From Candidatus Aenigmatarchaeota archaeon (lineage in GTDB: Archaea > Aenigmatarchaeota > Aenigmatarchaeia > QMZP01 > QMZT01), in NCBI GenBank assembly GCA_043808015.1, contig JAZDFI010000029.1:40537-104536 (forward strand): 64,000 nucleotides of DNA, given 5' to 3'. A program made the translations under genes and the position numbers. The notes below the pieces were generated by a model. The model had not been told where the DNA came from. It did not search any database and saw nothing but the letters and a program-made list of their open reading frames with translations. Below are positions 23,617 to 58,179 of the stretch, piece by piece (positions within the stretch are counted from its first letter, which is position 1; each line of letters begins with the position of its first letter).

Positions 23617-24711
23617 TTATGCGTGGACCATTAACGTTCTTATTTTGTCAGATAAGACGTATTGGAAGCTCTTGCCGCGCCTTTTTCTGATGATTGTGCC
23701 GTCTTTCACCAGCCTTTTGAGTATGTTGTTTATCGATCTAATCGCGTTGTCCTTGCTCTTGTAATCTTCCATGTCCATCTTTTCAACAATCTCGGTTGGT
23801 GTCATCTCACCATATTTCCACAGTGTTTCGATTATGTGTTTCTGTTTCGATGGCAAATTGTCAAGCGAACCGAGTGAAATTCTTTTTGGTGAATGATGCA
23901 TCACGTGTGAAAACTCGCTTTCTCTCAGGAAGTTGTGGTCTATTGTGGATACGTTATTTTCCATCGCCTTCTGAACAAGATCGTTGCACAGTCTTATGAC
24001 TTCCCTCGGGAAGCCGCCGCTTTTTTCGTATATCTCTTCCACAGTTTCCGATGTGAATGGCTTTATATCTTCGCCGCCGGCCCATTCTATGCGTCTCTTT
24101 ATCAGTTCTCTGGTTTCGGTTTTGGTGAGATTTGTGAGCTCAATTTTCGTGCTCATTCTACGAATGAATGTTTCAAGCTTGTCTCTCAGTACGTTCTCTA
24201 GAATAGGAAGGCCTGCAATGACCACTGTGAGGTTTTCTATCTGATCCGTCAGCGTCCGCAGCCATTCAAGCGTTTCTGTGCTGGCTTCGTGACTTTCATC
24301 GACAAAAAGCGCTATCTTTCTGTTCTTTGTTTTTTTGTTCACCCATTCACTAAGGTTGTATATGTTAACTTCACTTCTGCGTGAAAATAGCCTTTCGAAC
24401 GTTCCTGTTCCTATGAAGTTGGTGAAGATCTTCACCCAGTCGTCCTGATTGCTCGGTGGCTTTGACAAATAGAAAACCTTTCTCTGTTTTTCGAAAGATT
24501 TTGCGAGAAATTTGAGAAGGGTCGTTTTGCCTGAGCCCGTGGGGCCTATAAGAAGGGACATTTTATCCTCGCTGCTTATGCTAGAAGCGAGTTTTTCCAG
24601 TTCCTTGCCATGTCCCACGTACAGACCGGGCATTATCTTGAAATTGAATGGATTTTCTTTCCACTTGAACATCTTCATGTATTTTTCATCCAAGTTCATG
24701 CTGAAGTTCAT
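23617..24711 (-). CDS. AAA+ ATPase (ExeA/GspA-like N-terminus) with C-terminal winged helix
   Basis: Y…F.WKENPF, Walker A GPTGSGKTT, Walker B LFVDESH, SGGFPREV, C-terminal wHTH (MTPTEIVEK…INNILKRLVKDG.I.R). Start placed at ATG 24711. Confidence 0.85.
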   Translation of the reverse strand: MNFSMNLDEKYMKMFKWKENPFNFKIMPGLYVGHGKELEKLASSISSEDKMSLLIGPTGSGKTTLLKFLAKSFEKQRKVFYLSKPPSNQDDWVKIFTNFIGTGTFERLFSRRSEVNIYNLSEWVNKKTKNRKIALFVDESHEASTETLEWLRTLTDQIENLTVVIAGLPILENVLRDKLETFIRRMSTKIELTNLTKTETRELIKRRIEWAGGEDIKPFTSETVEEIYEKSGGFPREVIRLCNDLVQKAMENNVSTIDHNFLRESEFSHVMHHSPKRISLGSLDNLPSKQKHIIETLWKYGEMTPTEIVEKMDMEDYKSKDNAIRSINNILKRLVKDGTIIRKRRGKSFQYVLSDKIRTLMVHA

Positions 24712-24834
24712 AATTTCATATAATTCGTGAATGAATTTAAAAGCTTTTCGTGAAGGTCGTGTAAATCGTGTGAAAATGTAGTGTGATATATGTGAAATGA
24801 CAAACAATTTATATAATGGCGGCATATTCATCTA

Positions 24835-25383
24835 ATGAGATGCTTTATATCAATAGATGTTGATGATCGCCTCAAAGAAAGCATTTTGCAGATTCAGAAA
24901 AATATTTTAAATTTGGGCGTTGATGTGAAAATGGTAGAACCACAAAACCTCCATTTCACCGTCAATTTTTTGGGTGAACTGGATGAAAATAAAATAAGCA
25001 ACGTGAAGAAGCAACTTGACTACGTGAAGGGTGCATGTGAATTTGAAGTGAATGTCGCGGGTCTGGGATATTTTGGAAATGAAAATAACATAAGAACGCT
25101 TTGGTTGGGCCTGAAAGCTGGTGAACGTGAATTATCTGACTTGATGTCGGATGTAAATGAATGTGTGAAAATCGGCGAGAAATGCACAAAACCTCATCTT
25201 ACAATAGGAAGGGTTAGAAGTGGTTCCGGCAGAAAGGATTTGCTCGACTTTATAAAAAATCACTCAGATGTGAACATAGGTGAAATGAACGTGAAGTGCG
25301 TGAAGTTGAAAAGAAGTGATCTTGGCGCCAGTGGGCCGATATACGATGTTTTGTACGATGTTAAGTTGGTTTCGCATGAATGA
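24835..25383 (+). CDS. thpR: RNA 2',3'-cyclic phosphodiesterase (2H family)
   Basis: MRCFISI plus two HxT motifs (LHFTV, PHLTIGR). Confidence 0.92.
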   Translation: MRCFISIDVDDRLKESILQIQKNILNLGVDVKMVEPQNLHFTVNFLGELDENKISNVKKQLDYVKGACEFEVNVAGLGYFGNENNIRTLWLGLKAGERELSDLMSDVNECVKIGEKCTKPHLTIGRVRSGSGRKDLLDFIKNHSDVNIGEMNVKCVKLKRSDLGASGPIYDVLYDVKLVSHE

Positions 25384-25762
25384 AAAGACGCTGACAAAAA
25401 TATCAGTAGTTGGATCTGTGTTAAGTATAATTTTACTGTATTTTATGACTCTGAACATCATTCCTGAGGGAATGGCTATCGGTAATCTTGATCGATCATT
25501 AATTGGCAGAAGCGTTAGCATAACCGGAAAAATAACTTCACTCTACGTGAACAACGGTAACATGTTCATGAACGTCGCTGACGAAAGCGGTGAAATAAAG
25601 GCAGTGTTATGGAAAGATACTCTGGAGATGATCCGTATCAATGACATTAATCCTGATACATTCGAAGTCGGTAAAAAAATAGACATAACAGGTGAAATCC
25701 AGGAATATAAAGGGGAACTTGAAATAGTGCCTGTGAAAGGCGTTGTGAAGCTGGCTGATTGA
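25376..25762 (+). CDS. Membrane-anchored OB-fold protein
   Basis: N-terminal TM helix, V.ITG.I, DESGEIKAVLW, ITGEIQEYKGELEI. Confidence 0.8.
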   Translation: MNEKTLTKISVVGSVLSIILLYFMTLNIIPEGMAIGNLDRSLIGRSVSITGKITSLYVNNGNMFMNVADESGEIKAVLWKDTLEMIRINDINPDTFEVGKKIDITGEIQEYKGELEIVPVKGVVKLAD

Positions 25763-25763
25763 A

Positions 25764-26795
25764 TCATATGCTAGTGCTGGCGCTCTTCACGAGCTCGGTC
25801 ACCAATATCACGGCATTCTTCACGTCATTCATGTCTGCTACCTCTGTTGGTGTGTGAAGGTAACGTGAAGGTGTCAATATTGCGATGGATGGTATGCCTT
25901 CCCTTATCATCGGTGTAACAGACGCGTCGGTCGCTCCTCCTGAAAGGATGTCGAACTGGATTTTTATTTTGTTCTTTTTAGCTACATCTTCAACCCATTC
26001 CTTCATCTCGCTTTGTATTATGCTGATAGCATCTTTCACTACAAGGACTGGACCCAAACCCATTCTGGCAGGGGCTTCGTATGGCTTTAACTCGGGCGTG
26101 TCGCCAGATGTGGTGGTATCGAGTGATATTACTACATCCGGATTTATGCTGAAAGCCGAACCCCTCACGCCAACAAGGCCTATTTCTTCCTTGACCGTGC
26201 CGACGGCGTAAACCGTGCCTTTGAATTTCTTCAGATTTTTCATGACTTCTATCATGACTAGGCAGCCAATTCTGTCATCAAAGCCGTGAGCTGTTATCCT
26301 AGAACCATTTAGTTTGTTGAACTCTCCATAAATCGTTATGAAGTCCCCCAATCTTATGCCAATTGCTGCAACTTCTTTTTTGTTTTTGGCGCCTATGTCT
26401 ATGAACATGTCGTTCAACTTCACGATTTTGTTCACGTCTTCTCTGTCCTGCAGATGAATCGGTTTCGAGCCAATGACACCTATGACCGGGCCTTTCGTGC
26501 CATGTATTTTGAACTTCTGCGAAAGCAGAACTTTCGGGTCCCAGCCACCGACTGGCTCGAATTTTATGAAACCGTCTTCATCGATGTATTTGACCATCAG
26601 GCCAACTTCGTCCATGTGGGCGGTGAGCATGACTTTTGGCGAACCAGACCCCTTCTTGCAAATCAGGTTGCCTATCTTGTCAATCTTTATTTCATCAACA
26701 TAAGGTTTGATTTCTTTCGATATCAAATCCCTTATATTTTTTTCGTAACCCGAAATAGATGCTGAATCGACAAGTCTTTTTAATAAATCTTCCAT
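25764..26795 (-). CDS. M42-family (TET-like) aminopeptidase
   Basis: AHMDEVG, FDDRIGC, TVKEEIG, GATDA, RYLHTP; GGGTGA RBS before ATG 26795. Confidence 0.93.
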   Translation of the reverse strand: MEDLLKRLVDSASISGYEKNIRDLISKEIKPYVDEIKIDKIGNLICKKGSGSPKVMLTAHMDEVGLMVKYIDEDGFIKFEPVGGWDPKVLLSQKFKIHGTKGPVIGVIGSKPIHLQDREDVNKIVKLNDMFIDIGAKNKKEVAAIGIRLGDFITIYGEFNKLNGSRITAHGFDDRIGCLVMIEVMKNLKKFKGTVYAVGTVKEEIGLVGVRGSAFSINPDVVISLDTTTSGDTPELKPYEAPARMGLGPVLVVKDAISIIQSEMKEWVEDVAKKNKIKIQFDILSGGATDASVTPMIREGIPSIAILTPSRYLHTPTEVADMNDVKNAVILVTELVKSASTSI

Positions 26796-26855: not shown

Positions 26856-28130
26856 TTAAACAATATCCTCTTTTGACAGGATGCCCACCGGCGTTGACTT
26901 TATCATTTCCTTTTCCATGCCTATGAGGAACTTCACGCCTTTCTTTCTGGCTATCATATCCAACCTGTAGTCGACTTTTCCGTCGAATATGACCGCATAC
27001 GGGTTATCGAGCGTTTTCAGCGTGTTCTGCAGTTCCTTGGTAGGAACCTTTCCTAGCAGGTTGAATGATGAATCGAATATGCAAGCCGCCCTGGTGCCGA
27101 TGAGCTCATCAAGTGTTTTTTTGAAATTCTTTTTCTGCTCGTCGGTTATCATCACTTTTCTCACAAGCGATGACTGCTGCGTTCTGAAGTCCCTTTCCCT
27201 GTTGTCATCGATACTCCTATCAATATTCCTTTCCTGTATGTGTTCCGGTCGCTCTTGCGGCCTGTCGCGCCTTTCGAAATTGTTATTGCTTTGGGGCCTG
27301 TCATTCTTGCCTTCTACCTTGAACTGCGAGGCCGATACTTTGTCCCTCAATGCCTTGAAAACTTCCTTCTTTGAAAGCTCCTCCACTTCCTTGCCTTCCG
27401 GGGCAATGGCGACAAAGTCGACTTCCGATGTTTCCAGTAGGCTCTTCAGGTTAAGGCTGCCGCCCCTGTCTCCGTCGAAGAACGCGGTTAACGTCTTCTC
27501 TCTGGAGAGGCTCACTATCTGAGGCGGTATTGAACTGCCCTCTATTGCTATTACATTTTTTATGCCGAATTTGATGAGGTTTATTACATCCGCTCGCCCT
27601 TCGACGACTATTATTTCCTCGGACTCCATTATGCCTGGACCGCATGGCAATCCCTGCCAAGTCGTTATTTCATAAGCCTTTATTTCCTGCTTTATTTCTT
27701 CCGCCATTCTGCTCGTGTCAGGAATGCCTTTTTCGAGAAGTTCTTTCAGTATCGCCTTCGCCTTTTCGATGACAAATTTCCTTTTAAGTTCTCTTGTGTC
27801 CTCAACTGATTTAAGTATAATTTTAGCTATGCACGGGCCTACCCTTTCTATAGTTTCCAGCGTAGCCGCTATCAGAGCGGTCTCGGCCGAATCAAGAGAT
27901 GAAGGTATTATCACTTCACCGTGCGATTTGCCCTTTTCCGAGTTTATGTTGACTTCTATCCTGCCTATCCTGCCTGTCCTCTGCAACTCTCTCAAATCAA
28001 GGTCTGGACCGAGCAATCCTTCTGTCTGCCCAAAAATAGCTCCTATCACATCAGGCTTTTCTATTACTCCCTGAGCATCTATCTCTGCTTTTACCACGTA
28101 TTTTATCGAAGTTGGTGCAAGTTTTGACAT
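26856..28130 (-). CDS. dnaG: Archaeal DnaG (primase / exosome subunit)
   Basis: KPDVIGAIFGQTEGLLG.DLDLRELQ.TGRIGRI, IIVVEGRADV, FFDGDRGG. Confidence 0.96.
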   Translation of the reverse strand: MSKLAPTSIKYVVKAEIDAQGVIEKPDVIGAIFGQTEGLLGPDLDLRELQRTGRIGRIEVNINSEKGKSHGEVIIPSSLDSAETALIAATLETIERVGPCIAKIILKSVEDTRELKRKFVIEKAKAILKELLEKGIPDTSRMAEEIKQEIKAYEITTWQGLPCGPGIMESEEIIVVEGRADVINLIKFGIKNVIAIEGSSIPPQIVSLSREKTLTAFFDGDRGGSLNLKSLLETSEVDFVAIAPEGKEVEELSKKEVFKALRDKVSASQFKVEGKNDRPQSNNNFERRDRPQERPEHIQERNIDRSIDDNRERDFRTQQSSLVRKVMITDEQKKNFKKTLDELIGTRAACIFDSSFNLLGKVPTKELQNTLKTLDNPYAVIFDGKVDYRLDMIARKKGVKFLIGMEKEMIKSTPVGILSKEDIV

Positions 28131-49019: not shown

Positions 49020-50225
49020 ATGCTAAGAAAAGTGATTTCACGCAAGATAATCGCCGAGCGCGAAGAAGAGCTGCCGCTTTCGACTATGGGCGAGCTCATA
49101 AAAATTGCCGAAGAGAACAAGGGAATAATTTCCCTGGGCCCGGGCGAGCCGGATTTTAGGACCCCAAAGCACATAATCGATTTCGCATGCAAGAAGCTGC
49201 GTGAAGGCTATACTCACTATTCGCCGCCGGCAGGCAGGCACAGCCTGCGCGAGGCAATAGCCAAAAAGCTCAGGAGGGACAACAAGATTGACGTTTCCCC
49301 AGACCAGGTCATAGTCACGGTCGGCTCCACCGAAGCGATATTGCTGGCTCTCATGTGCACGACCGATCCGGGCGAGGGTGTACTTCTGCCGGATCCCGGG
49401 TTCCTTGCATACAGGCCGATCGTCGAGACGCTCAGCGGCATGCCTCTCAACATTCCTCACCACGAAGATGCTGGATTCCAATTCGAGGTGGAGGAGGCAG
49501 AGAAAGCTATATTACCGGAAAAGACGAATGTTTTGATAATAAATTCGCCGTCGAACCCGACTGGTGTGGTTTACAGAAAGAAGACGCTCGAGAAGATAGC
49601 TGACTTTGCATGCGAACACGACCTGCTCATTGTATCAGATGAGGCGTATGAAAAGCTTGTTTACGGCGGCGAGAAACACGTGTCCATAGGCTCGTTTAAC
49701 GGCATGGAAAACCGCGTTCTGACGCTGCACACGTTTTCGAAGACGTATGCCATGCCTGGTTTCAGGGTTGGTTATGCCGCCGGGCCTGAATGCCTGATAA
49801 ACGCCATGAAGAAGCTGCATCTGTACACGACGGTCTGCGCGCCCACGGTTTCACAGGAGGCCGCCTTAGCCGCGCTCAAAGGACCGCAGGTTTGTGTTTC
49901 CAAAATGGTAAAGGAGTATGACCGCCGCAGGAAACTGATAACAGAACGCTTGAACAACATCCCGGGTATTTCATGCATCGAACCAAAGGGCGCGTTCTAC
50001 GCGTTCCCCAATATAAGCAGTTTTGGTATGAAATCCTTTGATTTTACAATATGGTTGCTGAAAAACGCGCGCGTCGCTACCACACCCGGTACAGAATTTG
50101 GTAAGCTGGGCGAGGGTTATGTGCGTTGCTCTTTTGCAACATCTTATGAAAAAATAAACACCGCCATGGACCGGGTTGAAAAGGCAACCAAGGTACTGAA
50201 TAAAAAGAAGAAAAAGACCCGGTGA
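49020..50225 (+). CDS. PLP-dependent aminotransferase class I/II
   Basis: GEPDF.TP, NSPSNPTG, SDEAY, SKTYAMPGFRVG, PKGAFY.FP. Confidence 0.93.
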   Translation: MLRKVISRKIIAEREEELPLSTMGELIKIAEENKGIISLGPGEPDFRTPKHIIDFACKKLREGYTHYSPPAGRHSLREAIAKKLRRDNKIDVSPDQVIVTVGSTEAILLALMCTTDPGEGVLLPDPGFLAYRPIVETLSGMPLNIPHHEDAGFQFEVEEAEKAILPEKTNVLIINSPSNPTGVVYRKKTLEKIADFACEHDLLIVSDEAYEKLVYGGEKHVSIGSFNGMENRVLTLHTFSKTYAMPGFRVGYAAGPECLINAMKKLHLYTTVCAPTVSQEAALAALKGPQVCVSKMVKEYDRRRKLITERLNNIPGISCIEPKGAFYAFPNISSFGMKSFDFTIWLLKNARVATTPGTEFGKLGEGYVRCSFATSYEKINTAMDRVEKATKVLNKKKKKTR

Positions 50226-50401
50226 CCTTTCTTTCCTGTGGAGGTTTGTTTTTTTATACCAAAGCTAATTTTGTTCGTAACTATTGTTGTTATAACAATG
50301 TTATATATTTCCATAAGAAATCTAAAGGTCTTTCCATGAGAAATGATGGTGTCATGGTATTGGAAAAGAAAAGGCATTTAAACCCCAGTTTCAAATGGAA
50401 A
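50224..50401. other. Replication origin candidate 1 (ORB cluster upstream of cdc6)
   Basis: ORB-like boxes: minus 50224-50243 CTCCACAGGAAAGAAAGGTC; plus 50308-50330 TTTCCATAAGAAATCTAAAGGTC; plus 50331-50352 TTTCCATGAGAAATGATGGTGT; minus 50381-50401 TTTCCATTTGAAACTGGGGTT. A ~65 bp AT-rich spacer lies between the first inverted pair. Confidence 0.8.
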
Positions 50402-50404
50402 AGC

Positions 50405-51613
50405 ATGGCGCAAAAATCATTGGGGGAAATATTCCAAAATTATGTTGAAAAGAAGTCGGTTTTCAAACAAAAAGACACACTTTCCACCCATTTCACACCA
50501 GACACAATACCCCACAGGGGCGCGCAGATAAACCAGATCGGCCTTATCCTGGCGCCCGTCCTGCGCGGTGAAAAACCATCCAACATATTCATTTACGGCA
50601 AAACAGGCACGGGCAAATCGCTTTGCGTCCAGCACACCACAACAAAGCTGCTAGAGGTTGCCAAAAAGAATGCGAGCGAAAACATCAAAACCATATACGT
50701 GAACTGTAAGATGAGCAAGGTTTCGGACACGGAATACCGCATGCTCTCGCAGCTCATATCCAATTTTGGCGTCGAAGTCCCTTTCACCGGCCTGCCCACA
50801 AACCAGCTTTACAAACAGTTCTACAAACTGATTGACGAAAAAAAACAAAACATCATACTCGTTTTGGATGAAGTCGATGCTCTCGTCAGCAAGATAGGCG
50901 ACGGCGTTCTGTACAACCTCACAAGGGTCAACCAGGACCTGAAAAACTCGAAGCTCACGGTCATAGGCATTTCGAACAACATATCATTCATAAACGATCT
51001 CGATCCGCGCGTCAAGTCGTCGCTCTCGGAAGAGGAAATCGTCTTCCCCCCGTACAACGCCAACGAAATAAAGGACATATTAACCGAGCGCGTGGGCATG
51101 GCATTCAACGATGGCGTCATTTCGCCTGCCGTCATAGCCAAATGCTCGGCGCTCGCAGCGCAGGAGCACGGCGACGCGAGGAAAGCCCTCGACCTGTTAA
51201 GGGTTTCCGGTGAGATAGCAGAGCGTCTCAACAACAGCATTGTTTCCGAAGACCACGTGGACATAGCCGAACGCAAGCTGGACGTAGATAAGACCATAGA
51301 AATCGTCCAGAACCAGCCGAAGCAGTCGCAATGCGTCCTCATGGCCATAATCAGGCTTTTCAAAAGCGGCAAAAACGGCGTGCAAACCGGCGACATATAC
51401 GACGTTTACGTGGAGATATGCAGAAAGAACAACATGAAGCAGCTGACGCAACGGCGAATATCCGACCTCATATCAGAGCTGGATATGTTCGGCATCGTCA
51501 ACGCGAAAGTCATATCAAAAGGCCGCTACGGCAGGACGCGTGAAATAAAGGTCGGGTTGTCCAGGGAAATAATAGAAAAAATAGAAAGGCTTTTCGGGTC
51601 CGATTTTGCCTGA
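50405..51613 (+). CDS. cdc6: Orc1/Cdc6 replication initiator
   Basis: P..IPHR..QI, IYGKTGTGKS, YVNC, LDEVD, LDPRVKSSL..EEIVFPPY, HGDARKALDLLR, wing SKGRYGRT. Confidence 0.96.
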   Translation: MAQKSLGEIFQNYVEKKSVFKQKDTLSTHFTPDTIPHRGAQINQIGLILAPVLRGEKPSNIFIYGKTGTGKSLCVQHTTTKLLEVAKKNASENIKTIYVNCKMSKVSDTEYRMLSQLISNFGVEVPFTGLPTNQLYKQFYKLIDEKKQNIILVLDEVDALVSKIGDGVLYNLTRVNQDLKNSKLTVIGISNNISFINDLDPRVKSSLSEEEIVFPPYNANEIKDILTERVGMAFNDGVISPAVIAKCSALAAQEHGDARKALDLLRVSGEIAERLNNSIVSEDHVDIAERKLDVDKTIEIVQNQPKQSQCVLMAIIRLFKSGKNGVQTGDIYDVYVEICRKNNMKQLTQRRISDLISELDMFGIVNAKVISKGRYGRTREIKVGLSREIIEKIERLFGSDFA

Positions 51614-51647: not shown

Positions 51648-52529
51648 ATGGAAAAAAGGGACATACTGGAGCTTTTTTTGAAGAGCGACGTCATGCTCTC
51701 ACCGGAAGAGTTTGAAACTATCGATGAAAAAAATTACATGCGCATACTCGAGGAAAAGAAGAGCGCTTCCTCCAAAGACGACACGATAGTATCAAAGCCC
51801 AGAAACGGCAGGATATCATGCGACCAGTTCGTCAGGGCATCGGTCAATAAATTCGAATTTTTGCGGGGCATCATACTCAAAAAAACGGAAGCGGTTTCGA
51901 TAAACAAGGCCAAGAAAGTCTTCTCCGAAGTCACCATAATAGGCCGTGTTAAGGAGACGTCGCAGCGCGGCTTCATCATCGAGGACGTTACCGGCGAAAC
52001 TGAAGCGGTCTACGAAGGCAGGGACATAAGCGTTGGCGATGTCATCGGCTTGAAGGGGTATTTCAAGGAAAACAGTCTTTTTCCGGGCCAGGTCGTATGG
52101 CCTGACATACCATTGGATAACGTTCCGAAGCCGCCCGGCATCAGAATGACGCTGACCACGAAGGTAAAGGACGGCCGCATGCCGGGCCTGATAGTGTGCC
52201 CGGATTCTGAGAAGGCATGCAACGTGGTCACTGGTTTCGGCCGGTCAGGCTCGGTCAGCATAACAAAACACGGATCAAGCCTCCTTCTCACGGCATATTC
52301 CAGAACGAATGAAATCAAGGAGGAAGATGCTGTAAAAATTCTGAAAAAACGCTCGTTGCCTGCGGATGGGCCGGTAGAAAACGTTATTGAGGAAATACCG
52401 CACATAATCTGGCTCTTCGACAACAAAAGGAACTGGGTCAAAAACTACAGGGGCGTCATTATAATATCGACAGACAGCGAAAGCTTTGCCGACTACGACG
52501 GTCAGGAGGTCGGCTTCGGGAAGCTTTAG
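51648..52529 (+). CDS. Degenerate PolD small-subunit (DP1)-like protein lacking exonuclease motifs
   Basis: DP1-like OB fold (EVTIIG.V, IEDVTG, DVIGLKG, WPDIP) and C-terminal LKKR.LP…VIEEIP…YRGV; no DxH, GDxxD, GNHD, HG or GHxH motifs. Confidence 0.8.
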   Translation: MEKRDILELFLKSDVMLSPEEFETIDEKNYMRILEEKKSASSKDDTIVSKPRNGRISCDQFVRASVNKFEFLRGIILKKTEAVSINKAKKVFSEVTIIGRVKETSQRGFIIEDVTGETEAVYEGRDISVGDVIGLKGYFKENSLFPGQVVWPDIPLDNVPKPPGIRMTLTTKVKDGRMPGLIVCPDSEKACNVVTGFGRSGSVSITKHGSSLLLTAYSRTNEIKEEDAVKILKKRSLPADGPVENVIEEIPHIIWLFDNKRNWVKNYRGVIIISTDSESFADYDGQEVGFGKL

Positions 52530-52567
52530 CACAACCGTATTTAATAAAAAACACACAAAGGATTATT

Positions 52568-53242
52568 ATGCTGAAAATACTTGTGGTAGCAGACATACAT
52601 GGTGAATTCGAGAAGTTTTCTAAGATGATCGACAAATTGAAGAGATGTGATTTCGACGTCGTCGTCTGCCCGGGCGATTTTACGGACATGTACAACATAC
52701 CCGAAGGATTCAACCAGACAGACATCGCCGAGCTGATAATACAGAAGCTTCTGTCTTTAGGCAAGCCGGTTCTTTGCATACCGGGCAACCATGAACCATA
52801 TGAAATAATAGACCTGTTTGAGGAATACGGGGTTAACGCGCACGGCATAATGAAAAAAATAAAGGATTATGAGTTCATAGGCTTCGGAGGCGCTGCGACG
52901 CCATTCAACACGAAGTTCGAACCTCCGGAAGAGGAAATAAAGGCGTCGCTGGAAGCGCAGGCAAAAAAAGCAAAGGGTGGTTTCATCCTGCTCGTTCACA
53001 ACCCGCCGTTCAACACAAAAATGGACAAAGTCGAGACAGGCGAACACGTCGGCTCGAAAGTCATAAGGGAGTTCATAGAAAAAACCAAACCCATTTTAGT
53101 GATATCGGCGCACATACACGAGGCAGTAGGCACGGATAAAATAGGCAGGACGACGCTCTTCTACCCGGGCGTTTCTTATGAAGGCAATTACGGCATAGTG
53201 GAAATCGGAAATGAAGTTAAATGTGAAATGAAAAAAGCGTGA
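52568..53242 (+). CDS. Calcineurin-like metallophosphoesterase (Icc-related)
   Basis: ADIHG, PGDFTD, PGNHE, HNPP, SAHIHE. Confidence 0.92.
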   Translation: MLKILVVADIHGEFEKFSKMIDKLKRCDFDVVVCPGDFTDMYNIPEGFNQTDIAELIIQKLLSLGKPVLCIPGNHEPYEIIDLFEEYGVNAHGIMKKIKDYEFIGFGGAATPFNTKFEPPEEEIKASLEAQAKKAKGGFILLVHNPPFNTKMDKVETGEHVGSKVIREFIEKTKPILVISAHIHEAVGTDKIGRTTLFYPGVSYEGNYGIVEIGNEVKCEMKKA

Positions 53243-53273
53243 AAGCGGGTTTCACACGTTCATATTATTCATA

Positions 53274-53993
53274 TCATTGTATTGTTTTCAGCTTGCCCAG
53301 TATTTCTTCTATTGATTCAATACGGCAAAGGGCGACCGGTATTGATTCGACTTCGGCTATGTTCATCGCGACCTCATTCACCTTGTCTATGCCGTGAAGC
53401 ACGACAAGCCCGGGCTGCATGCCCGTGAGCTTGATGGCCACGAGCGGTGTTTTGCCTGTCGTCACACCCGTGAATAAAAGCGCCCGCTGCGTTGTGGCTC
53501 CATATAGCTGTATCAGCTGGTTATGAGAAAGCTCCAGTATCGCTTTCACGGAGTCGACGACCGTGTAGCCGTATATGAACCTGTCGGCTGGCGCGCCTTT
53601 GGTGATTATGGGCGCGTTTATTCTCCTGCAGAACTCATCGACGCGTATGCCGGCGGCGAACTCGCGTATGTCTATAATGGCTTTCGAGAGCCCGGCCGGG
53701 CCTGAAGGCTGTGTGAATGTCTTAAGTACGGTGCCGCCTCTCTTAATGTCTATCGAAATGAGCGCATTGACGTAACGTTTTATGACGTTTATGCCCGGCG
53801 ATTTCCTACGGCCGGACTCGTAATCGGATATGACGGATGACGTAATGCCAATATGTCCAGCCAGCTTCTTCTGGGAGAAGCCGAATATGACCCTCCATTT
53901 TTTCAGAACCTGCTCTGGCGTTTCAGATAGTATAATCTCTCCTATTATATCCTTGGCCAGCTTATCCATTGAAAGGCGAAGTTCGTCAACCAT
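53274..53993 (-). CDS. XRE-family HTH transcriptional regulator (conserved archaeal type)
   Basis: I.GEI.LS..P…LKKWR..F..SQ..LA…SVISDYESGRRKSPG, YGYTVVDS.KAI, RALLFTGVTTG. Confidence 0.88.
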   Translation of the reverse strand: MVDELRLSMDKLAKDIIGEIILSETPEQVLKKWRVIFGFSQKKLAGHIGITSSVISDYESGRRKSPGINVIKRYVNALISIDIKRGGTVLKTFTQPSGPAGLSKAIIDIREFAAGIRVDEFCRRINAPIITKGAPADRFIYGYTVVDSVKAILELSHNQLIQLYGATTQRALLFTGVTTGKTPLVAIKLTGMQPGLVVLHGIDKVNEVAMNIAEVESIPVALCRIESIEEILGKLKTIQ

Positions 53994-54033
53994 AGAAACA
54001 ATTTACGTTGAATTACTTAAAAACGTTTCTTCG

Positions 54034-54057
54034 ATGTTTAAACGGATGTTTAAACAT
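54034..54057. promoter_or_regulatory. Tandem ATGTTTAAACGG-ATGTTTAAACAT (putative operator)
   Basis: Same 12-bp unit in tandem, between divergent HTH and tctA-like genes. Confidence 0.65.
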
Positions 54058-54090
54058 AACTTCTTAAGCCGCTATCGGAAAATTTTTAAA

Positions 54091-55308
54091 ATGTTCATAG
54101 GATTGCTGCTGGCCGTGGCGTGCGGCCTGGCGCTCGGAATAGCGACGGGCCTGGTACCGGGCATACATCCGAACACCGTTTTTGCGCTGGTTCTGGCCGC
54201 TCCGCCAATTTTTACCATATTTTCACCTTATGCCGCCATGGCGTTCATAGTCAGTCTTGCCATCTCGAATACGTTTTTCGATTTCATCCCGTCCATCCTG
54301 TTTGGCGCGCCAGAAGAGGACGCGATACTTTCAGTCCTGCCCGGACACAAAATGCTCCTCGAAGGAAGGGGATATGAAGCCGTGTTTCTCACGGTCATGG
54401 GCGGCTTGGGCGTGGTTCTGCTAACGATAGCGACGCTGCCTTTGCTGTTCATGATGGTCCCGGCCATCCACTGGCTGCTGAGGCCGGTCATACACCTAAT
54501 ACTAATAGCCGCGGTCTCGTGGATGGTCCTGACAGAAAGACGCCGGTTAACGGCGCTGGCGGTGTTCCTGCTGGCCGGTCTGTTTGGGTTCATGTCACTC
54601 AACTCATTCCCGTCAGATTTCGCATTATTTCCCGCTTTGACGGGTCTGTTCGGCATTAGCACGATCCTGACAAGCCTGATGTCGAAAGCTACAATACCGG
54701 AACAAAAAATAGAAAGCAACATTAAAGGAAACTGGCTGAAGGGCAGCCTTACGGGATGGCTTGCTGGCCTGCTGTCGGGTTTCCTGCCGGGTCTCGGCTC
54801 TTCCCAGACAGGCATACTGGCATCACAGGTTCTGAAAACAAAGACTCAGGAATTCATGATCGCGCTTGGGGGCATAAACACATCGAACATTTTCTTCACG
54901 TTCATAGTTTTCTATTCCATTGGAAAAACCAGATCAGGCGCGGTCTGGGCCATATCCAGGGTAATGGAAACCCTGAGCGTAACAGACACCCTCCTCATCG
55001 TGGTGATAGGCGTTCTGGTGACATTGATTTCAGCGGTTTTGACACTCAAAATCAGCAAGTTCATGGTAATGAAACTGAAACACGTGAATTACATGAAGTT
55101 GTCGCTCACTGTCCTTTTTTTGCTGATTTTCCTTGTGATTTTACTGGGCGGCATATATGGCATAGTCATAGCAGTAGCCGGCACTTTCCTGGGTTTGCTG
55201 GCCACCCGGGTGGGTGTGAAAAGAACACATCTGATGGGTTTCCTCGTCCTGCCGACCATTCTATACTTTTCAGGGCTCGATCCATTTCTCATAGCAGCTT
55301 TATGGTGA
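54091..55308 (+). CDS. Archaeal TctA-family membrane protein
   Basis: TGLVPGIHPN, FFDFIPSI..GAP, SVLPGH.MLLEG.G, GFLPGLG, G.TRSGA. Confidence 0.88.
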   Translation: MFIGLLLAVACGLALGIATGLVPGIHPNTVFALVLAAPPIFTIFSPYAAMAFIVSLAISNTFFDFIPSILFGAPEEDAILSVLPGHKMLLEGRGYEAVFLTVMGGLGVVLLTIATLPLLFMMVPAIHWLLRPVIHLILIAAVSWMVLTERRRLTALAVFLLAGLFGFMSLNSFPSDFALFPALTGLFGISTILTSLMSKATIPEQKIESNIKGNWLKGSLTGWLAGLLSGFLPGLGSSQTGILASQVLKTKTQEFMIALGGINTSNIFFTFIVFYSIGKTRSGAVWAISRVMETLSVTDTLLIVVIGVLVTLISAVLTLKISKFMVMKLKHVNYMKLSLTVLFLLIFLVILLGGIYGIVIAVAGTFLGLLATRVGVKRTHLMGFLVLPTILYFSGLDPFLIAALW

Positions 55309-55309
55309 A

Positions 55310-55530
55310 TATAGCGGTGTTATGAAAATCACGTGAAACAAACAACCCCCCTGTTTCCTATGAAGATTCTAAAAACAGTTATATATAGACACTATGAACG
55401 AAATAAAATTCCATCGGAAATGAAGGATAAACCAACTTCACCGTGAAACACATAACGTCCGAATGAAGATTCTCTTCGGGAACTTCACACAAGATTCCAT
55501 AAGAAACGAGGGGGTTCATGGCTGGACGTG
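55310..55530. other. Replication origin candidate 2 (ORB cluster between convergent tctA and polB)
   Basis: Minus 55344-55365 CTTCATAGGAAACAGGGGGGTT; plus 55409-55428 TTCCATCGGAAATGAAGGAT; plus 55495-55516 TTCCATAAGAAACGAGGGGGTT. AT-rich spacer 55366-55408. Confidence 0.72.
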
Positions 55531-55533
55531 AAG

Positions 55534-58179
55534 CTAGCACACAACGCTTTTGGCGGGGCCTAATGGCGACGAGAAAGAGAAGGAGCCGCCACATTCACAT
55601 ATGCCGGTGAGCGGTGGAAGCGTATACGTCCTGAAACACTTCTTGCATATGATGCCGGTAATCTGGTCTGCCGGTATTTCTTTCAGTTCATCAGTCTTTT
55701 TTGGCGCGCTCACGTTAAACGCCCCGAAAAGGCCAATCTGCTTGCCCTTTCCGAGAAGCTCTGTTTTCGATATGCCAAGCGCGTCGAATATCCTTTCCAG
55801 GGGCGGAAGAAGCTGGTTTTCCAGATAGTATTTCGAATCTATTTCCAGGCCGTGCTCCGTCACGTATGCCGGATCTTCAGACCTCCTGGACAAAAGGTCC
55901 AAACCCTTGATTATAACATAACCTATCCTGTCACCAACACCGGGCGCTTCGGCCGGACTGCGCTTTCTTATTTTTTTCACGAGTTCGGCATGCGGCTGTA
56001 CGCCATCATAAAAGTCGGCCTTTTTCGTCATGGTTTTGGTTATTACCAGCTTCTGGATGGGTATTTTTCCGGCTACCATGTCATCGACTACGCCTTTGAA
56101 ATGTTTCACCGCCTTCTTGATGTCATTGGTCTTCAGGATTGTGTCGAGGATGTGACCAATCGTTTCTGATGTCAGGCTGCACCAGTCCCTGCGGACAGTC
56201 TCGATTCCTTTCGTCTCGATGCGCTCTTTCCAGCCGCCGTTTGCAACTTCGAAAGACCATGCGGCATAGCGTTTCTTCGTGAGCGGTAAAAAGCGTTTGA
56301 AAACCTTCTCGAATTCGAGTTCCATAACACCTTTGAGTATTGCTGTCTTCGTGCCTTCCGTTACTTTCTCACCAGCTTTACGCATGTCCTCAAGGTCGTC
56401 GAAAGGGACTTTTATCATAACAGAATCCGTATCACCATAAACGACCCTGTAACCATACTCCCTTTCTATGAATTCCTTGGTGTTTTTTATCGTGTCCCTG
56501 CCGAACGCGGTCACGGAATTGGCTATTTCAAGCGAATAAAGCTTTGAGCGGGGATAGCCGAAATAGCCGTAGAAAGCATTTGACATTATCTTGAGCGCCA
56601 GCTGCTTTGCCTTGAGCTCCCTGGCGCGGGCGGGGTTGGTTTCCTTTTTCATGTCCCTTTTCACGATCTGCCGCTCTTTTGTGAGCCGCTCCAGTATTCT
56701 CGGTATTATGCCGCACTTCAGGCTCTCAGGCACGAACTTCACTCCGACCGGCGACACATTTTCGCCATCCACATCACCCTCGAGAAGGAGCGTCGTGGGG
56801 CACATGTTGTAGGTTCTCATGAGCGACGGATACATCGACTTGAAGTCCAGGACGATGATGTTGGAATGCAACCCCTTGTCGGGCTCCAGGACGAAACCGC
56901 CTTTTAGCTCGACTTTGCGCGCATTGTCCCTTTTCGCGACGTCGGAACTATTCGGCTTGCACGGAACTATGTAGCCGTCCTTGTTGAATTCGCGCAGGAC
57001 GAGATTTTCGATGCGTGTAGTCTCGCCGGAATCCAGTATGTCCTGCAGCAGTATACCTGAAACCCTGGAAAGAGCTATGTATTTGTCAAGAAGGTTGAGC
57101 TTGATTATCAGGTCGAGCGCGAGCTTCGCATCTTTCCTTGAATAATTCACCAGAAGCCTGTAGTCCTCGTTATTGCCGTGCCACAATTTTTCAATCTGGG
57201 ATTTTTTAACCGGCTCTTTGCACTCCTTCAGCAGCTCCGTGGAAACACTGTTGAGATCGTAACGTTTCATGGAGAAGCCCTTTTTCACGAGCTCGAACGA
57301 ATCCACCACAATCCTGCCGGTTATGTTTACCCTGTGCCTGTTCATGACCTGGTTCGTGGTCACGCGCTTGTTGCACCGCCCGAAGCCCGGATACACGTCT
57401 TGGGACTTCATTCTTTCAAGGATGTACGGAATGTCGAAGTTGTTTATGTTGAAGCCCGTTATGAAGTCGGGGTCGTATTCCAATATTATTTCGTTCATGC
57501 CCTGCAGCATTTCCTTCTCGTCCTCGTAGTATGCGACATCCTTTTCGGAGCGCGTGCTCAGGACCATGTCCTTGCGGCCCTTGTAAGGCTCGCTGAAGGC
57601 GAGGGAAATCATGATTATCGGGTCTTTCGTGCTGACAGGCATTTCGCCTTCCTTTAGCGAGACGCATTCAATGTCGAGCGCGAGAAACTTGAGCGGAGCT
57701 AGCCCTTCCTTCTCGACGGGCTTGAAGGTTTTCATCTTTATTTTTTTGCCGGTGCTGACCGTCGCCGTCGACACGCCGTTCGTATCCTCGACTTCTATCC
57801 ACCCCATCCCAAAGAGGCCTTGGTCCGCCATGAACCTGTATTTGAAGGGAATGTCGGCTTCGAATACGCGGCAACCCCTCGCAAAGAGCTTTTCGCGGAG
57901 TTCCGGAGTCTTGGCCGGATTTTTTGTTACGATTTTAATAACCTCTTTCTTCTCGGTCTGGTAGCCGGACGGTAAAAATCGCAGGACTTTATCGACTCTC
58001 GCTACGTTCGCCTCGTTTTTAACCAGCTCCTCTACGTTGTTGCCCGTGGCGTAGAAATAAGGTTCGAAGCCCTCGTAAAAACAGCAGACAGTCTCGCCTC
58101 GTTCGCTCTTGCCGAAAATCCTTATTATGGGCTTGTCCCCAACCAGCGTGTAGTCTGCATCGAGTATCTGCAAAAGCAT
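55534..58179 (-). CDS. polB: Family B DNA polymerase, Pol-delta-like, with PIP-like box and C-terminal Cys4 zinc finger
   Basis: Exo DIE, FN…FD, Y…D; Pol DFKSMYPS, K…N..YG, YGDTDS, KKRY, KGIETVRRD. C-terminus QIGLFGAF then CKKC-x12-CEC. Confidence 0.95.
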   Translation of the reverse strand: MLLQILDADYTLVGDKPIIRIFGKSERGETVCCFYEGFEPYFYATGNNVEELVKNEANVARVDKVLRFLPSGYQTEKKEVIKIVTKNPAKTPELREKLFARGCRVFEADIPFKYRFMADQGLFGMGWIEVEDTNGVSTATVSTGKKIKMKTFKPVEKEGLAPLKFLALDIECVSLKEGEMPVSTKDPIIMISLAFSEPYKGRKDMVLSTRSEKDVAYYEDEKEMLQGMNEIILEYDPDFITGFNINNFDIPYILERMKSQDVYPGFGRCNKRVTTNQVMNRHRVNITGRIVVDSFELVKKGFSMKRYDLNSVSTELLKECKEPVKKSQIEKLWHGNNEDYRLLVNYSRKDAKLALDLIIKLNLLDKYIALSRVSGILLQDILDSGETTRIENLVLREFNKDGYIVPCKPNSSDVAKRDNARKVELKGGFVLEPDKGLHSNIIVLDFKSMYPSLMRTYNMCPTTLLLEGDVDGENVSPVGVKFVPESLKCGIIPRILERLTKERQIVKRDMKKETNPARARELKAKQLALKIMSNAFYGYFGYPRSKLYSLEIANSVTAFGRDTIKNTKEFIEREYGYRVVYGDTDSVMIKVPFDDLEDMRKAGEKVTEGTKTAILKGVMELEFEKVFKRFLPLTKKRYAAWSFEVANGGWKERIETKGIETVRRDWCSLTSETIGHILDTILKTNDIKKAVKHFKGVVDDMVAGKIPIQKLVITKTMTKKADFYDGVQPHAELVKKIRKRSPAEAPGVGDRIGYVIIKGLDLLSRRSEDPAYVTEHGLEIDSKYYLENQLLPPLERIFDALGISKTELLGKGKQIGLFGAFNVSAPKKTDELKEIPADQITGIICKKCFRTYTLPPLTGICECGGSFSFSSPLGPAKSVVC

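Follow-up and report, generated by a model that had tools for sequence, protein, structure and literature searches.

The window examined here is a 64,000-nucleotide stretch of DNA from a Candidatus Aenigmatarchaeota archaeon (assembly GCA_043808015.1, contig JAZDFI010000029.1, positions 40,537 to 104,536 of the forward strand). It contains the gene of a family-B DNA polymerase (PolB) that carries a small cysteine finger at its C terminus and, about 3 kb from the 3' end of that gene, the gene of a protein that resembles DP1, the small subunit of the archaeal polymerase PolD (DP1-DP2). The locus very probably encodes both subunits of the Aenigmarchaeal PolB-DP1 replicase, which is a substitute for PolD in most of the phylum. 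The PolB-DP1 system is already known and the window is regarded as an instance of it; the pair would presumably act as the main replicase of the organism.

In the proposed complex the catalytic subunit would be a family-B polymerase similar to Pol delta, whose own 3'-5' exonuclease does the proofreading. A single Cys4 finger, derived from Zn-III of DP2 and placed behind a motif resembling the PCNA-interacting protein (PIP) box, would dock with its PPLxG loop and a short tail on the OB side of a reduced DP1. Because its nuclease motifs and roughly half of its phosphoesterase domain are gone, this DP1 would be a B subunit without catalytic function and would serve as a scaffold or adaptor, as subunit 2 of Pol alpha, delta and epsilon does.

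The polymerase and its C-terminal finger

The PolB gene occupies positions 55534..58179 of the minus strand and encodes 881 residues. The open reading frame matches the Pfam models DNA_pol_B (PF00136, E 6e-110) and that of the exonuclease domain (PF03104, E 6e-43). In an alignment of 46 full-length relatives, to which all statements on invariant PolB residues refer, the exonuclease residues D169/E171, D249 and Y346/D350 of motifs Exo I, II and III are invariant, as are the polymerase residues D445, Y450 and D583/D585 of motifs A and C. The proofreading motifs are therefore intact, as had been claimed in an earlier inspection of the sequence (the original prediction). The best match in the Protein Data Bank (PDB) is the catalytic subunit of human Pol delta (E 5.5e-125), followed by the PolBs of Thermococcales (E 3.6e-111). 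By this comparison the PolB core is nearest to Pol delta among the solved structures, and the description 'Pol-delta-like' given to it previously was apt in this sense.

Translation and the alignment of relatives place a PIP-like motif, QIGLFGAF, at residues 814-821 (55717..55740, minus strand), past the end of the thumb domain, where canonical archaeal PolBs stop. Q814 is invariant and the later positions of the motif vary. The motif may bind PCNA. A linker of 22 residues separates it from the finger, ICKKCFRTYTLPPLTGICECGG, which comprises residues 844-865 (55585-55650) and is followed by 16 residues before the stop codon. The original prediction had located the finger, past QIGLFGAF, at exactly these coordinates. 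Its four cysteines, C845, C848, C861 and C863, are invariant and make up the single Cys4 motif of the PolB tail. Together with the PPLxG loop and a tail strand the finger forms a terminal element of residues 844-881 (55537..55650, minus strand), which is homologous to Zn-III of DP2 and is the predicted docking element for the DP1-like protein. It would be expected to bind zinc.

The origin of the finger was examined by comparing a profile of 29 PolB tails with the C-termini of five Aenigmarchaeal DP2s, which come from the sole family of the phylum that still holds PolD. The two align by hhalign with a probability of 96.7% and an E-value of 4.4e-10 over 34 columns. When the PolB-tail profile was run against the entire PDB, the three best matches were Zn-III of DP2 from Thermococcus kodakarensis and Pyrococcus abyssi (6knb_B, E 1.3e-7; 6hms_B and 6t8h_B, E 1.6e-5), and the fourth match had an E-value of 0.15. 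These two results show that the PolB finger is homologous to Zn-III, and the capture of a DP2 finger by PolB, which had been proposed, is borne out at that level.

The five Aenigmarchaeal DP2 C-termini have the form FRCxxCNxIYRRPPLSGKCxKCxG, continue for about 55 residues of helices and close with a PIP box, and in solved DP2s the finger lies 110-160 residues ahead of the C terminus. The earlier statement that DP2 ends in the finger was thus imprecise. The helices that trail the finger in DP2 are missing from PolB.

Two further observations concern the PolBs of these genomes. In five cases (G118:C16, G105:C2, G064:C4, G022:C67 and G115:C96) the finger terminates open frames of 1300-1730 residues, whose length suggests PolB genes with inteins or fusions. 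The source genome also has a second PolB of 822 residues (G000:C3:17928-20396), which has a PIP-like QRSLNMFM followed by a lysine-rich basic tail. It was considered as a carrier of the finger and rejected, its C-terminal tail having no cysteine motif.

The DP1-like protein and its erosion in the phylum

The DP1-like gene (51648..52529, plus strand) encodes 293 residues: helices at the N terminus, then an OB fold, then some 130 residues that remain of a phosphoesterase domain. The protein has no match in Pfam, the DP1/B-subunit model PF04042 included, and the NCBIfam model of the PolD small subunit gives a weak match limited to its OB region (E 1.2e-13), which falls well short of the cut-off. 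Among 906 candidates, 45 relatives were found at E <= 0.001, most of them 278-313 residues long. Thirty aligned members of this family, down to 31% identity, share 21 invariant positions. The nearest relatives of both the PolB and the DP1-like protein carry the source labels Candidatus Aenigmarchaeota or Aenigmatarchaeota. Against the PDB, the family profile finds the OB fold of P. abyssi DP1 (E 9e-10) and, weakly, the C-terminal end of its phosphoesterase domain. The AlphaFold2 model of the protein has a predicted local distance difference test (pLDDT) score of 87.9 and a predicted TM score (pTM) of 0.77. In a Foldseek search with this model the DP1 chains are the best matches (E 5.7e-14, query TM score 0.59) and the B subunits of Pol epsilon, delta, alpha and zeta come second (E 5e-9 to 1e-6). 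As modelled, the protein has the fold of DP1 and the B subunits, an OB fold followed by a calcineurin-like phosphoesterase domain, the latter only about 130 residues long.

Metallophosphoesterases of this kind have five motifs, DxH, GDxxD, GNH[DE], H and GHxH. The window group was aligned with four full-length DP1s of DP2-bearing Aenigmarchaeota; all five motifs are present in the DP1s of these relatives and none in the window group, in which about 120 residues are missing, the phosphoesterase domain is reduced by approximately half and the region of motif I is wholly deleted. The protein is catalytically dead, to judge from its sequence. The original prediction had spoken of an inactive DP1 lying 3 kb from PolB; both the distance and, because all five motifs are missing, the label were correct. 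The ratio of nonsynonymous to synonymous substitution (dN/dS) of the DP1-like gene is 0.20 and 0.35 in two close pairs, that of cdc6 is 0.055 and that of the neighbouring metallophosphoesterase gene is 0.11. The DP1-like gene is under purifying selection, which is more relaxed than that on cdc6 or on the phosphoesterase neighbour.

DP2 (PF03833) was not found in the 934-kb source genome by a search that was positive in three control genomes, and neither was PF04042, for which the search was likewise positive in control genomes. The presence of DP2 and the co-occurrence of finger and DP1, both of which had been named as checks, were then determined in 151 sampled genomes of the phylum. A profile of the DP1-like protein has matches in 143 of them. 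The 67-residue PolB tail was found (E <= 0.01) in 125, nearly always at the end of a frame of 870-960 residues. The N-terminal domain of DP2, PF03833, is present in eight genomes, namely all seven members of one family (f8) and one other; PF04042 matches in 23, and in none of the 34 other genomes of the window's order. Within family f8 the finger search matched in only two of the seven genomes, in frames of 203-224 residues, none of which is a PolB. One genome of the same genus as the window (G073) had no finger match in the tail search. Its DP1-like gene is about 1.5 kb away from where the retrieved stretch stops, and the length given for the contig (97,736) suggests that the PolB lies beyond the contig end. 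A further genome, outside family f8, contains a DP1-DP2 pair on a 3-kb contig (G091:C64) and also, on separate contigs (C30 and C47), a finger match in a 481-residue frame and a DP1-like match with three TGA stops. The bin may be mixed, or the genome may carry both systems.

Both genes could be located in 118 genomes, in 106 of which they lie on one contig within 6.5 kb of each other and in 12 on different contigs. The tally took one best DP1-like match per genome, for 141 of the 143 matching genomes, and the finger matches of all 125; for one genome (G039) the match in a 901-residue frame was used instead of a slightly better one in a 383-residue frame. The 12 cases on different contigs include G005 and G027, with the finger matches in 203-224-residue frames that are not PolBs, as well as G089, G091 and G101, where frames of 400-481 residues were probably cut by contig ends. 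Of the 106 linked pairs, 76 are co-directional and have the DP1-like gene immediately upstream of PolB, 27 are convergent, which is the arrangement in the window, and three have PolB ahead of the DP1-like gene. All these counts are to be read as conservation and not as a statistical test, because related genomes are not independent.

The cdc6/orc1 initiator gene of the window (50222..51613, plus strand; 463 residues; Pfam Cdc6_C, E 1.4e-30, Cdc6_lid, E 1.5e-24, and AAA domains) is co-directional with the DP1-like gene and ends 35 nucleotides upstream of it. It stands directly upstream of the DP1-like gene in all 12 loci examined from the window's order, and the arrangement cdc6, DP1-like gene, PolB recurs in four loci of other orders. 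The cdc6-DP1 neighbourhood of the window is similar to the classical cdc6-DP1-DP2 cluster at the Pyrococcus origin. With PolB in the slot of DP2 in that cluster, the order of the genes would point to a replacement in place.

The reduction of DP1 is graded across the phylum. In the family that keeps DP2 (G016, G060, G005 and G027) the protein has about 460-520 residues and all five nuclease motifs. In other orders (G015, G044, G071 and G111) it has about 340-440 residues and retains DxH, GDxxD, H and GHxH, having lost the histidine of GNH. In the window's order it has about 290 residues and no motif. There, only that half of the ancestral interface in which the finger sits in the OB groove would be left. 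The joint proposition that the window's order holds the most reduced polymerase B subunit known, with partners trimmed together, graded intermediates and replacement in place, is tentative and stands slightly short of an even chance.

Predicted binding and other readings of the locus

The complex was modelled from the DP1-like protein, residues 806-881 of PolB and a zinc ion. Its score in three runs was 0.79, against 0.00 for the highest-scoring of three controls; the score mark is reached by 58 of 80 solved complexes and by 2 of 110 mismatched pairs, counts that are only approximate for a model with custom alignments and a zinc ligand. The runs agree in at least 97% of the contacts and the pLDDT of the partner is at least 73. 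The modelled contacts involve PolB residues 834-843, 853-859 (the PPLTG loop), 866-869 and 876-881 on one side, and on the other the helix 53-69 and OB residues 100-114 of the DP1-like protein, including the invariant E112 and D113. Excerpts of PMC6355029 describe how the Zn-III loop of PolD lodges in an acidic groove where the OB and phosphoesterase domains meet, and the predicted PolB-DP1 contact is of the same kind. The modelling check named in the original prediction thus came out in favor of the pairing. The model and the published two-hybrid result on an Aenigmatarchaeota pair (passages of PMC12680538) together suggest that the two proteins bind each other in this organism.

Several points weigh against a PolB-DP1 replicase in the window. 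The source genome, assembled in 39 contigs, is estimated to be 90.7% complete, so that a DP2 gene may lie on unassembled DNA. Across the window's order the PolB and DP1-like genes converge with 1.5-5 kb between them and therefore do not form one transcript. Two arginines of the KxRRxP loop of DP2, which dock in DP1 in PolD (PMC6355029, in the excerpts used), correspond to Thr-Leu in the window's PolB. The PolB also has no equivalent of the helices to which the phosphoesterase domain is bound in PolD, and the interface must therefore differ from the solved PolD one. The good score of the complex model may reflect a likeness to the solved complexes of DP1 with DP2 and of the Pol alpha and epsilon C-terminal domains (CTDs) with their B subunits. 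Binding, zinc occupancy and polymerase activity are all predicted for this organism, and the DP1 of the two-hybrid experiment may be a longer form from another order.

A phosphoesterase domain so heavily eroded that Pfam does not recognize it, in a gene that evolves faster than its neighbours (dN/dS 0.20, compared with 0.055 in cdc6 and 0.11 in the phosphoesterase gene), might belong to a decaying relic of a lost PolD that has no present role. The finger would then serve some other contact, for instance with DNA or PCNA, and excerpts of PMC6355029 do place Zn-III of PolD near the nascent duplex as well. Such decay is very improbable, however, for a gene that has open full-length frames in 143 of the 151 genomes, with no stops among the matches listed, whose dN/dS is well below 1 and whose linkage to PolB is conserved. 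The 21 invariant positions, the confidently predicted fold, the distance between the complex model and its controls and the two-hybrid binding in print (PMC12680538, passages) all speak against it too. A living DP1-like protein could instead be an adaptor of B-subunit type that has its main partner elsewhere, in the second PolB, the primase, GINS/CMG or Cdc6, the link to the finger-bearing PolB being genomic only. The gene does come immediately after cdc6 in every one of the 12 loci examined from the window's order, eukaryotic B subunits also bind other parts of the replisome (excerpts of PMC6355029), and the complex modelling covered one pair. Yet the element grafted on the window's PolB is the very finger with which PolD binds DP1, the second PolB does not have it, and in the two-hybrid passages of PMC12680538 DP1 did not bind canonical PolBs. 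With the model at 0.79 and its controls at 0.00, a main partner other than this PolB is unlikely, while additional partners could exist.

The gene next to the DP1-like gene offers another possibility. It encodes an intact calcineurin-like metallophosphoesterase of 224 residues (52568..53242, plus strand; Pfam Metallophos, E 3.6e-22) and begins 38 nucleotides past the DP1-like gene, which it follows on the same strand in 11 of the 12 loci of the window's order. The protein is well conserved (61-93% identity) and its metal-binding motifs, DIHG, GDFTD and GNHE, are apparently intact. It could therefore be imagined as the detached nuclease half of a split DP1 that works together with the 293-residue protein. 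Its matches are, however, to Metallophos and Metallophos_3 and not to PF04042, and among solved structures it is closest to Aquifex aq_1956 (E 3.5e-5) rather than to a DP1. The gene is also absent from this position in one locus (L013) and in other orders, where PolB follows directly. Since the DP1-like protein retains a remnant of the C-terminal end of its own phosphoesterase domain, the DP1 gene was eroded rather than cut. A split DP1, which was rejected because of the aq_1956 relationship and this remnant, has hardly any likelihood at all.

The two-subunit PolB-DP1 replicase is supported because the homologies of PolB, finger and DP1, the loss of the nuclease motifs, the failure to find DP2 in the source genome, the gene linkage and the complex model all held. 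The recruitment of DP1 by a finger-bearing PolB, the core of the original prediction, is in turn favored by homology, linkage, the predicted complex and the published two-hybrid data.

Neighbouring genes, known systems and significance

Two genes stand between the metallophosphoesterase gene and PolB. One (53274..53993, minus strand) encodes an XRE-type helix-turn-helix (HTH) protein of 239 residues with Pfam matches to HTH_19 and HTH_3, and its position is kept in 11 related loci. The other (53830..55308, plus strand) encodes a TctA-family membrane transporter (Pfam TctA, E 5.5e-51, the match beginning at residue 93) and in many related loci is likewise found beside the PolB 3' end. Because its frame overlaps the HTH gene, its true start is probably downstream of 53830. 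On the other side of the locus, cdc6 overlaps the upstream aminotransferase gene, which therefore leaves no intergenic space beside cdc6.

The inactive DP1 had been said to share its locus with cdc6 and with clusters of origin recognition boxes (ORBs). The part concerning cdc6 was right; the ORB clusters could not be recovered. No convincing ORB cluster came out of repeat searches, which covered the whole window (seed 12, length >=20) and the region from 44 to 60 kb (seed 9, length >=15) and gave scattered weak matches only. The 225-nucleotide spacer between the 3' ends of TctA and PolB (55309-55533) contains the only two copies in the window of the 9-mer TGTTTCACG, 110 nucleotides apart on the same strand. 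One copy sits inside the short dyad TTCACGGTGAA, and 13 of 100 shuffles yield at least two matches of the 9-mer somewhere in the window. The G+C minimum of the window (0.408) is at 24001-26000. The sole 20-nucleotide direct repeat at the stricter setting, CTGTGTTAAGTATAATTTTA, occurs at 25416-25435 and 27806-27825, with the copies 2390 nucleotides apart, and the low-G+C stretch with this repeat could be an AT-rich control region or an origin.

The closest known system was described by Kazlauskas et al. (2020, NAR; PMC7544198). In the excerpts of that article, a 'B6-aenigma1' PolB has one motif like Zn-III of DP2, DP2 is missing from most Aenigmarchaeota, and an inactivated 'Aenigma_GB_GCA_002789635-like' DP1 is defined. 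It is also proposed there that a proofreading, CTD-bearing PolB afforded the inactivation of DP1, and this scenario serves there to model how eukaryotic polymerases originated. Passages of a 2025 article in Nat Ecol Evol (PMC12680538) name the tail of the Aenigmatarchaeota PolB a 'degenerate DP2CTD' and report, from prediction with AlphaFold3 and from yeast two-hybrid experiments, that DP1 binds PolB-DP2CTD in Aenigmatarchaeota and Baldrarchaeia, in contrast to canonical PolBs. The same passages attribute the two-finger 'B6-aenigma2' sequences to Baldrarchaeial contamination. The window agrees with the B6-aenigma1 system, as far as the excerpts describe it, in phylum, a PolB whose best solved relative is Pol delta, a single Cys4 motif nearest to Zn-III of DP2, DP2 not being found, a dead DP1 and the proposed mechanism, and no essential difference from that description is seen. 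The assignment to B6-aenigma1 relies on such features and not on a match to the example in that article, OIN85950, which is not among the accessions returned for ten clusters.

PolD itself (for example that of Pyrococcus abyssi; PDB 6hms, 6t8h and 8ppt) has in common with the window the DP1 fold and a docking element homologous to Zn-III. The catalytic subunit of PolD is the two-barrel DP2, whereas that of the window is a family-B polymerase. The window's DP1 is shorter by about 120 residues and by the five nuclease motifs, and the window's PolB has no counterpart of the helical bundle through which the CTD of DP2 binds the phosphoesterase domain. The PIP box is at the very end of DP2, whereas the PIP-like motif of the window's PolB precedes the finger.

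The eukaryotic polymerases alpha, delta and epsilon (PDB 4y97, 5vbn and 6tny) share with the window a family-B subunit, a C-terminal metal module and an inactive B subunit of DP1 type. Their CTDs consist of two cysteine motifs, CysA and CysB, and a helical bundle (PMC7544198, excerpts), whereas the window's PolB has one Cys4 motif with no helices after it. Their B subunits have 430-570 residues in the matched chains, compared to 293 in the window, and unlike the eukaryotic enzymes the window's system has no known accessory subunits. The PolB3-DP2CTD and DP1 of Baldrarchaeia resemble the window in the fusion of PolB to a DP2-derived CTD and in a DP1 kept without DP2, and two-hybrid binding is reported for the Baldrarchaeial pair. 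The passages of PMC12680538, on whose description this comparison is based, give the Baldrarchaeial CTD as full-length, like those of DP2 and eukaryotes, and the Aenigmatarchaeal CTD as shorter and of another predicted structure.

The idea of the original prediction is therefore not new, because the system was described and its mechanism proposed in 2020 and two-hybrid evidence followed in 2025, to the extent that the excerpts of the two papers cover it. The architecture having been pointed out then, the window adds no new concept. The additions made here are modest: the gene linkage, the graded erosion of DP1 and the intact metallophosphoesterase gene beside a dead DP1. The linkage of cdc6, the DP1-like gene and PolB was found neither in the text of PMC7544198 nor in the passages of PMC12680538 that were searched. 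Within the same limits, the two sources gave no mention of an intact phosphoesterase gene beside the dead DP1, of the trimming of both partners together or of PolB in the slot of DP2. The shortening of DP1 to about 290 residues and its graded erosion were likewise not found in these texts, and supplementary items S15 and S16 of the former paper may show them.

For annotation, it is of importance that the public records consulted list the small subunit as 'hypothetical protein' and that Pfam does not recognize it. The linkage data from the whole phylum strengthen the functional link between the DP1-like protein and PolB. The window is a clean and compact example of the system, with a B subunit of 293 residues and a docking element of 38 residues, and would be suited to structural and biochemical work. 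The system bears on the origin of the eukaryotic replicative polymerases, in which an inactive B subunit of DP1 type is attached to the family-B catalytic subunit by a metal module at the C terminus of the latter. The Aenigmarchaeota suggest that such an architecture can arise inside the archaea, by the grafting of the DP2 docking finger on a proofreading PolB.

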